This document shows, piece by piece, positions 1 to 517 of a DNA stretch of 517 nucleotides. The translations under genes were made by a program, and so were the position numbers. Within the stretch, counting starts at the first letter, position 1; the number at the start of each line of letters is the position of its first letter. This stretch comes from Escherichia coli (GTDB lineage Bacteria > Pseudomonadota > Gammaproteobacteria > Enterobacterales > Enterobacteriaceae). The stretch is taken from NCBI RefSeq assembly GCF_003334335.1, contig NZ_QOWQ01000177.1; one strand, 5' to 3'. The notes under the pieces were generated by a model. It did no database searches, was not told the origin of the DNA, and saw only the letters and a list, made by a program, of their open reading frames with translations.

Positions 1-93
1 ATGCTGGTTGGCTCCCGCCGTATATCCCAGGACATCAGTACCCGTGATGAAGGCGGGGGCGGAAAGGTCGTGGTTATCGGGCGGCAGGGGTAA
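1..93 (+). CDS. I: Tail (tip) assembly protein I, C-terminal end; 5'-truncated by the window edge
   Basis: Frame +1 from position 1 reads MLVGSRRISQDISTRDEGGGGKVVVIGRQG followed by TAA at 91-93. This closely resembles the C-terminus of phage lambda gpI as I recall it (...GSRVVSQEISTADEGDGGQVVVIGR). Its position directly upstream of J matches lambdoid tail-gene order. The ATG at 1-3 is most likely an internal Met codon, not the start. GC content is about 63% by hand count, typical of the coding flanks. Confidence 0.8.
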   Translation: MLVGSRRISQDISTRDEGGGGKVVVIGRQG

Positions 94-139
94 AAAGAAT
101 AAAAAAATCCCGCAGTGATCGCGGACAGGAACTGCGGGA
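94..139 (-). terminator. Predicted intrinsic (rho-independent) terminator for a leftward transcript
   Basis: Perfect 9-bp inverted repeat: TCCCGCAGT at 108-116 pairs with ACTGCGGGA at 131-139, with a 14-nt loop (117-130). On the minus strand the stem is followed immediately by UUUUUUUAUUCUUUUU (complement of the A-run at 92-107). On the + strand no U-tract follows the stem (GAGAGTTACG), so it is oriented for the minus strand. The loop is larger than in typical terminators, which lowers confidence. Confidence 0.5.
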
Positions 140-198
140 GAGTTACGAAGATTAAGTGTAAGGAATTATTCTTATGTCACGACAAAAAAAATTAACGC
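100..198 (-). ncRNA. Candidate small non-coding RNA of about 100 nt (promoter-to-terminator unit without an ORF)
   Basis: The interval between the predicted start (about 198) and the end of the terminator U-tract (about 100) has no ATG-initiated ORF on the minus strand; the only coding-like string is GTG ACA TAA. The predicted transcript is 5'-GCGUUAAUUUUUUUUGUCGUGACAUAAGAAUAAUUCCUUACACUUAAUCUUCGUAACUC-[hairpin]-UUUUUUUAUUCUUUU. It has a U-rich 5' region and a terminator hairpin with U-tail, the usual layout of Hfq-type small RNAs. The boundaries are predictions. Confidence 0.3.
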
Positions 199-204
199 AG
201 CGAA

Positions 205-232
205 ATTATACGCGCCACAGTCAGTTTGTGAA
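205..232 (-). promoter_or_regulatory. Predicted sigma70 promoter on the minus strand (leftward)
   Basis: Read on the minus strand: -35 TTCACA (complement of 227-232, 5/6 match to TTGACA), a 16-bp spacer, then -10 TATAAT (complement of 205-210, 6/6). The predicted start is a G about 7 nt downstream, near + coordinate 198. It lies in the AT-rich spacer and fires away from J toward the terminator at 94-139. Confidence 0.4.
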
Positions 233-256
233 AATGTGAAGATATTCAGAATTTTT
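231..256. promoter_or_regulatory. CRP-like palindromic site (TGTGA-N6-TCAGA) with AT-rich flanks
   Basis: AAAATGTGAagatatTCAGAATTTTT compared with the CRP consensus AAATGTGAtctagaTCACATTT: the core at 235-250 matches 9 of 10 half-site positions, and the AAA/TTT flanks are present. The centre (about 242.5) lies roughly 44 bp upstream of the predicted minus-strand start, overlapping or just upstream of the -35. A second TGTGA at 227-231 gives a tandem TGTGAAAATGTGAA. Confidence 0.3.
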
Positions 257-272
257 ATTCAGTCATGATACA

Positions 273-300
273 GGCATCCTCCGGGGTGCCTGTTGTTTTT
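273..300 (+). terminator. Terminator-like GC hairpin with U-rich tail on the + strand, 36 nt upstream of the J start
   Basis: GGCATCC at 273-279 pairs with GGGTGCC at 284-290, giving 7 bp including one G-U pair, with a 4-nt loop TCCG. It is followed by TGTTGTTTTT at 291-300. An AU-rich stretch (AAUUUUUAUU, 250-259) precedes the hairpin. The A-run would precede the stem on the minus strand, so the orientation is +. It could be an attenuator or stability element of the late transcript, or the 3' end of a + strand small RNA. Confidence 0.35.
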
Positions 301-322
301 GTGAGTGAACAATTATCACGGT

Positions 323-330
323 AAGAGGTG
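323..330 (+). promoter_or_regulatory. Ribosome-binding site (Shine-Dalgarno) of J
   Basis: AAGAGGTG at 323-330 is complementary to the 16S 3' end, with a 5-nt spacer (ATGTA) before the ATG at 336. The ATG at 331-333 is followed immediately by TAA, so it is not a productive start. Confidence 0.6.
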
Positions 331-335
331 ATGTA

Positions 336-517
336 ATGGGCAAAGGCGGCGGCAGGGCGCACACACCGCGCGAGGCGAAGGATAATCTCAAATCCACGCA
401 GATGATGAGTGTGATTGATGCGATTGGTGAGGGACCGATAGAAGGTCCGGTGAAGGGACTGCAGAGTATCCTGGTGAACAAAACCCCGCTGACGGACACG
501 GACGGTAATCCCGTGAT
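336..517 (+). CDS. J: Host specificity protein J / central tail fibre (tip attachment protein J), N-terminal 60 codons; 3'-truncated by the window edge
   Basis: ATG at 336-338 opens a frame that stays open to the window end: MGKGGGRAHTPREAKDNLKSTQMMSVIDAIGEGPIEGPVKGLQSILVNKTPLTDTDGNPV. It matches the lambda gpJ N-terminus as I recall it (MGKGSSKGHTPREAKDNLKSTQLLSVIDAISEGPIEGPVDGLKSVLLNSTPVLDTEGN) at most positions. A strong Shine-Dalgarno sequence lies 5 nt upstream. GC content is about 62% by hand count. Confidence 0.9.
   Translation, partial: MGKGGGRAHTPREAKDNLKSTQMMSVIDAIGEGPIEGPVKGLQSILVNKTPLTDTDGNPV

Follow-up and report, generated by a model that had tools for sequence, protein, structure and literature searches.

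In phage lambda the tail genes I and J are adjacent, and the locus considered here raises the question of what the long, AT-rich stretch that separates the same two genes in an Escherichia coli tail operon may be. The window, by which we mean the whole stretch of 517 nucleotides that was analysed (assembly GCF_003334335.1, contig NZ_QOWQ01000177.1), had been suggested from its letters alone to hold a moron-type insertion, in other words extra DNA of deviating base composition that brings its own transcription signals. The moron concept is that of Juhala et al. (2000), as cited in PMC4104026.

The I–J junction and the leader of gene J

The 3′ end of the tail tip assembly gene I occupies positions 1..93 on the plus strand, as assigned from the list of open reading frames and from the annotation of Escherichia phage PhiR5_1, and it comprises the last 30 codons of the gene, which end in VVVIGRQG with the TAA stop codon at 91-93. 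The 5′ end of J, the host-specificity or central tail fibre gene, lies at 336..517 (+); it starts with the ATG at 336, beginning MGKGGGRAHTPREAKDNLKST, and its DNA is 75% identical to that of lambda J. The window as a whole is 99.6% identical to PhiR5_1, in which the flanks are annotated 'tail tip assembly protein I' and 'tail tip host specificity protein J' at the same positions, and in which the gene order around the junction is the usual V-G-T-H-M-L-K-I-J-lom.

With I ending at 93 and J beginning at 336, the intergenic spacer (94..335) measures 242 bp, as the original prediction had stated, and the lambda gap, which had been given as about 60 bp, is exactly 60 bp. The base composition was likewise close to the estimate, since the ~32% GC counted by hand at 141-260 becomes 31.7% on exact computation (39.3% over the whole spacer, 94-335) and the contrast with the flanks persists. 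The value of 62-63% attributed to both flanks, however, is near the mark for the end of I (1-93; 61.3%) and overstated for the start of J (336-517; 57.1%).

The last ~75 bp of the spacer, consisting of a hairpin and a ribosome-binding region, are the ordinary 5′ leader of J, with a layout as in the spacer of lambda. A scanner reported the terminator-like hairpin at 270..303 (+), ACAGGCATCC-TCCG-GGGTGCCTGT followed by TGTTTTTGTG, of which the 10-bp stem (270-293) lies 40 nt upstream of J; the fold z-score for 259-340 is −4.2, and the stem is kept in EPEC strain E2348/69 despite base changes. The ribosome-binding region (321..335, +), TAAGAGGTGATGTA before the ATG, is identical in E2348/69. The same scanner found no plus-strand promoter able to use the terminator at 270-293.

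Could the spacer as a whole be just an enlarged cis-regulatory leader of J, that is, a plus-strand terminator or attenuator with a structured ribosome-binding site and no independent gene? The strength of the hairpin and its T-run at 270-303 would fit such a leader, as would the 60-bp spacer of lambda (locus L087, 542-601), in which a GC hairpin (ACCGCC-TGCG-GGCGGT) followed by the T-rich tract TTTTG can be recognized by eye. Yet the leader covers only ~259-335, the scanner did not report the lambda hairpin, and the remaining 94-258 carries signals on the minus strand, from which RNAs have been documented in homologues. A leader without a gene of its own is thus very unlikely to account for the spacer.

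An alternative right-hand module of ~150 nt, which we call 'R3', replaces the plus-strand hairpin in loci L008, L090 and L091, where the spacers are 342-343 bp long. On its minus strand R3 carries AAACCCCGGTATC-AGCA-GATACCGGGGTTT with a T-run behind it, and it may constitute another small antisense transcription unit beside J.

A predicted minus-strand sRNA gene and its homologues

Upstream of the J leader, the spacer has the appearance of a transcription unit directed against the tail operon. A predicted sigma-70 promoter at 205..232 (−), with a −35 element TTCACA (232..227), a 16-nt spacer and a −10 element TATAAT (210..205), matches the consensus at 11 of 12 positions in a consensus scan. 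On the same strand and ~100 nt away, a predicted intrinsic terminator occupies 101..139 (−), its stem being formed by UCCCGCAG (139..132) and CUGCGGGA (115..108) and followed by U7 (107..101); the scanner reports an inner variant of this terminator at 125..109. Promoter-like sites in the window number 2 against 0.7 expected, and terminator-like sites 3 against 0.4 expected. The sRNA gene predicted between these signals would extend over 101..198 (−), ~98 nt from G198 to the end of the U-run, and would be a window-type allele of the PasB/EcOnc22-24 family described below. The claim that the spacer has transcription signals of its own is therefore upheld in the form of a predicted minus-strand promoter and terminator, which recur across more than 15 alleles in a sampling that partly selected for them.

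When the minus-strand RNA is folded, stable structure is found only in the terminator (139..108), and the first ~58 nt are AU-rich and unstructured. Conserved single-stranded motifs, which constitute a candidate seed, are located at 147..166 (−) and comprise the anti-Shine-Dalgarno-like AUUCCUUA (166..159) and UUAAUCUUC (155..147), with an A-rich AAG-AAU-AAU stretch just upstream (~175..167, −). The UCCUU motif of the sRNA is complementary to a Shine-Dalgarno sequence. The sequence hallmarks of an Hfq sRNA are present in the U7 tail, the ~58-nt unstructured body and the AAG-AAU-AAU (A-R-N) repeats. A scan of the window against Rfam with E values up to 10 returned no family at threshold; a match to MicX was dismissed, as it reached 21 bits against a gathering score of 75 and was driven by the two hairpins, and matches to archaeal snoRNAs inside J were dismissed as sub-threshold noise.

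A counterpart of this gene has been described in EPEC E2348/69, where PasB (pathogenicity-associated sRNA B) is encoded by prophage PP6 (Pearl Mizrahi et al., 2021; PMC8550237) at NC_011601.1, minus strand, 1466343..1466261, 83 nt (Table S6, PMC8550237). It lies inside a 240-bp gap between genes annotated "tail assembly protein" and "gpJ", from 6 nt beyond the stop codon of I and antisense to both genes, and the spacers of E2348/69 and of the window align end to end. The northern probe used for PasB (AATCCCGCAGTGATCGCGGAGCT; Table S6, PMC8550237) is identical in the first 20 of its 23 bases to the plus strand of the window at 106-125, which places the RNA on the minus strand of the window. PasB was verified by northern blot and found in uninduced EPEC culture, its level drops in an hfq mutant by 6.8 log2 units in the activating and 2.4 in the non-activating condition, and RIL-seq identified 37 partners (PMC8550237); none of the common target motif files names PasB. 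The published ends, which were set from read coverage, map to ~181..99 of the window, which puts the 5′ end ~15 nt further downstream than the −10 element would predict and points either to processing of the RNA or to a wrongly predicted start. According to Zhu, Shabalina and Storz (2026; bioRxiv 10.64898/2026.05.13.724894), the PasB seed lies immediately 5′ of its terminator.

Further counterparts exist in EHEC. EcOnc22, EcOnc23 and EcOnc24, from the O157:H7 Sakai prophages Sp15, Sp14 and Sp11, respectively, are ~85 nt long on northern blots, "destabilised" without hfq and detected in uninduced cultures (Tree et al., 2014; PMC4104026). Their probe, beginning GGGAGAGAACGATGAAGATTAAC, corresponds to the sense strand of three identical 240-bp Sakai I–J spacers, and the probe site is directly upstream of the shared terminator, at the same position as the sRNA gene of the window. 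It should be noted that the coordinates of Tree et al. refer to NC_002695.1 and that AgvB1 shows an offset of ~+138 bp to NC_002695.2; with this offset corrected, the Hfq peaks fall on the sRNA body of EcOnc22/23/24. A location of EcOnc22 near the start of J, which is apparent from uncorrected coordinates in NC_002695.2, was rejected on the basis of the offset and the probe sequence. The offset was seen at 1.94 Mb (L096, NC_002695.2 1941919-1941978) and is relevant to the mapping of any EcOnc sRNA.

The three Sakai loci (L092, L093 and L094) have the junction, the strand and the terminator in common with the E2348/69 locus (L002). PasB and EcOnc22-24, which are documented Hfq-dependent sRNAs in EPEC and EHEC, thus appear to be one family, by position as well as by sequence. 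The link between them is absent from both Pas papers, as the Note field for PasB in Table S6 is empty and "EcOnc" occurs nowhere in Zhu et al.

Taken together, we consider it probable that the I–J spacer is an autonomous non-coding moron, namely an sRNA gene of ~85-98 nt that lies antisense to the tail operon. Like its homologues, the window allele would be expressed as an Hfq-dependent RNA, and we infer the same properties for it because PasB has an almost identical promoter block and terminator. Transcription would proceed from the sigma-70 promoter of the spacer and end at the intrinsic terminator, 6-8 nt beyond the stop codon of I, as has been shown for the homologues. Having its own promoter and terminator, the RNA would be made in the lysogen while the late operon is silent, and expression from a repressed prophage, which holds for the homologues in uninduced EPEC and EHEC cultures, may be expected here too. 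The RNA would then bind Hfq, as suggested by the PasB and EcOnc22 data and by the long unstructured AU-rich body, the A-R-N repeats and the terminator with U7, and it would pair in trans with host and prophage mRNAs via the conserved single-stranded UCCUU and UUAAUCUUC motifs, probably at ribosome-binding sites.

An RNA so arranged might instead act mainly in cis on the late I–J mRNA, by RNase III cleavage or some other tuning of J during lytic growth, in the manner for which lambda OOP acting against cII is the precedent. As a consequence of the antisense arrangement, it is fully complementary to the I–J intercistronic mRNA, and the unit is always found at the I–J junction, in 0-3 copies. We nevertheless regard a principal role in cis as unlikely. 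Uninduced lysogens contain PasB and EcOnc22, and many partners in trans are on record for PasB; the gene body is ~75% identical between alleles while short motifs are fixed, which fits seeds that act in trans; and head-on late transcription would probably silence the sRNA promoter in lytic growth.

Control of the predicted sRNA may lie in a CRP-like palindrome upstream of its promoter (232..253), AAATGTGA-AGATAT-TCAGAATT. This 22-mer (AAATGTGAAGATATTCAGAATT) departs from the CRP consensus at 2 positions, and 200 shuffles gave 0 matches. Among 42 distinct upstream sequences, for whose selection the TGTGA half-site was required, the TCAGA half-site is invariant, in contrast to a freely varying 6-nt centre and −35 region. 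The centre of the site lies at about −44.5 from the predicted start, outside the canonical CRP positions of −41.5, −61.5 and so on, and this speaks against CRP control. Spot 42 (Spf) is repressed by CRP-cAMP, and PasB, which is higher in overnight LB than in DMEM, behaves in the opposite way to Spf. We can only speculate that the sRNA promoter might be under catabolite control by CRP-cAMP.

Alleles of the family and the junction in other phages

Comparison of the junction with relatives refines the proposal of an insertion. Most of the window is carried by 143 of 257 phage-collection records with related I or J sequence, while lambda, phage 21, cdtI and others match it from position 335 onward only, from which it follows that the I–J junction exists without the sRNA unit. 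The unit is common to most Stx-type and related lambdoid prophages and is not a recent insertion; because these prophages share it, the expected comparison with close relatives reveals no indel, and the lambda-type junction alone lacks the unit. Similarly, the extra DNA relative to lambda is real, but it amounts to ~165-170 bp (94 to ~260) and not to the ~180 bp that had been estimated. The case for a moron stands, in that genes adjacent in lambda are here separated by DNA that has a predicted promoter and terminator of its own and a GC content of 31.7-39.3% against 57-61% in the flanks. What has to be corrected is the cargo, which would be an sRNA and not a protein, and the orientation, which is antisense to the tail operon.

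The alleles of the window, of PasB and of EcOnc22 are alignable over the whole gene and retain conserved motifs, at an identity of 74-76%. The version found in the window is best regarded as a separate allele of a prophage sRNA family that is already known, and not as a new kind of element. PasB variants have been reported to differ by only a few nucleotides (Zhu et al., bioRxiv 10.64898/2026.05.13.724894), and the window allele appears to fall outside the BLAST-defined PasB set of that study. It is by no means rare: the window-type gene (99-200) is the best match, with at least 90% identity, in ~1,240 records of 5,426 complete E. coli genomes (~23%), and none of the matching records listed has an annotation at that place; in E. 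coli 2013C-3033 (NZ_CP027323.1) the match over 99-200 is 100% identical. Canonical PasB is present in 956 of the 5,426 genomes.

A broader set of 163 units was assembled from two scans of IMG/VR, one with the promoter motif and one with the terminator motif, and from other fetched loci, units being selected for the stem of the terminator and for TCACA, one half of the upstream element (searched as AATGTGAA). At 92% identity these units form 15 allele clusters, the three largest of which are the PasB type (F00; 83 units), the window type (F01; 27 units) and the EcOnc22 type (F02; 16 units). All 15 clusters have the upstream element TCTGA-N6-TCACA (RNA orientation), the TCACA half of which was selected for, a −10-like hexamer at a fixed position, and GCGUUA at the predicted start, with a U-run and then a variable A-rich stretch behind it. 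They also have in common the order AA(C/U)UCCUU, then GUUAAUCUUC, then the terminator, and there is hardly any variation among them in UCCUU and UUAAUCUUC. The terminator stem (CCCGCAG...CUGCGGG with U7) is identical in the window, PasB and EcOnc22 and invariant in the set, for which it was, however, selected; the upstream TGTGAA element is equally constant there and was likewise a selection criterion.

In the consensus structure the terminator alone folds, and the UCCUU and UUAAUCUUC motifs are unpaired; no support from covariation was obtainable for the terminator stem, which never varies and belonged to the search pattern. Such a layout is what one would look for in an Hfq sRNA that acts in trans and whose seed is single-stranded and adjoins the terminator. 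All family units that were checked for context are located between I and J.

The alleles also bear on the possibility that the spacer encodes a small protein. An open reading frame at 174-239 (+) would specify 21 aa (MSRQKKLTQRNYTRHSQFVKM) and is preceded by the Shine-Dalgarno-like AAGGA 9 nt upstream, and a 'hypothetical protein' is annotated between I and J in some phage records. In the commonest version of the window allele, however, the ATG of this frame is changed to ATA, and the frame is missing from spacers of the PasB and EcOnc22 types, which makes a protein product extremely improbable. The small open reading frames of the spacer were accordingly rejected as genes for their lack of conservation.

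Two side observations concern units that depart from the common form. In some IMG/VR phages, two or three tandem and mutually diverged sRNA units are located between I and J (L139 12175-13082, L099, L185, L121, L163, L040 and L107), with spacers of up to ~910 bp; Pas genes are typically single per prophage (Zhu et al., bioRxiv 10.64898/2026.05.13.724894). In addition, the terminator motif AAAAAATCCCGCAG...CTGCGGG occurs with loops of 41-48 nt in L110, L111, L122, L123, L098 and L181; these contigs have unrelated flanks with no I or J match nearby, and they may represent an unrelated element that shares the terminator.

A sRNA gene at this junction invites a wider reading, which we offer tentatively and hold to be possible though somewhat doubtful. 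The I–J junction could be a cassette site for hypervariable, possibly CRP-controlled Hfq sRNAs, with the window allele as a functionally distinct regulator that has its own targets. There would then be at least 15 alleles with a common upstream site, −10 position, terminator and two seed motifs, among which the bodies would have been exchanged; PasB and EcOnc22-24 would be two of these alleles, and the junction would hold 0, 1, 2 or 3 tandem copies, the sRNA sometimes being coupled to sodC.

Beyond the locus itself, the analysis extends a documented class of prophage sRNAs by an allele that is common yet unannotated, and it ties PasB of EPEC and EcOnc22-24 of EHEC, which were named in separate studies, into one family. 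As leads for future work, the CRP-like site may provide an entry to regulation, and allele swapping might retarget a prophage sRNA.

Comparison with known morons and prophage sRNAs

The spacer resembles protein-encoding morons such as sodC in being extra DNA between genes that are adjacent in relatives, with a promoter and terminator of its own and a deviant GC content, and it differs from them in that its predicted cargo is a non-coding RNA. sodC is itself found antisense between I and J, in Stx2_EH2201 (L088 393-1245) and in Sakai Sp10 (L187 7484-8336). The Stx2_EH2201 junction has, directly after sodC and on the same (minus) strand, a window-type sRNA body (92% identical) that lacks the TATAAT promoter; this sodC-linked copy may be a remnant or an sRNA of the 3′-UTR type. 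For the tail region of Sakai Sp10, where sodC lies between I and J, the published list contains no Hfq-CRAC peak (PMC4104026), and we counted this against the sRNA reading.

With AgvB and AsxR of EHEC, the predicted sRNA shares several features, as these too are short, prophage-borne and Hfq-binding RNAs at a moron site, with a conserved 3′ part and a variable 5′ part. They differ in being located downstream of PR′, in their length of 51-60 nt and in a sequence that is unrelated to the window, in which their Rfam families (RF02702 and RF02703) give no match even at E = 10. AgvB had been considered as a candidate for the I–J junction and was rejected, since it lies downstream of PR′ (Tree et al., PMC4104026).

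The resemblance to EcOnc22-24 extends to the junction, the strand and the terminator stem, and the RNA there is ~85 nt long and Hfq-dependent. In contrast, identity between the window and EcOnc22 is 74% in the gene, 75% in the promoter block and 73% in the right part, the promoter of EcOnc22, unlike that of the window, has a poor −35 element and AATAAT as its −10 element, and the right-hand modules of the two spacers differ. PasB and EcOnc22 are about equally distant from each other (gene 75%, promoter block 77%, right part 71%).

PasB agrees with the window allele in the I–J junction, the strand and the spacing to the stop codon of I. The terminator stem and the U7 tail are identical, and the two are 95% identical in the promoter block (201-258) and ~90% identical in the remaining, right-hand part of the spacer. 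The gene itself, by contrast, is only 76% identical, the terminator loop and the A-rich body being different. The UCCUU and AAUCUUC motifs are common to PasB and the window allele, while their surroundings differ.
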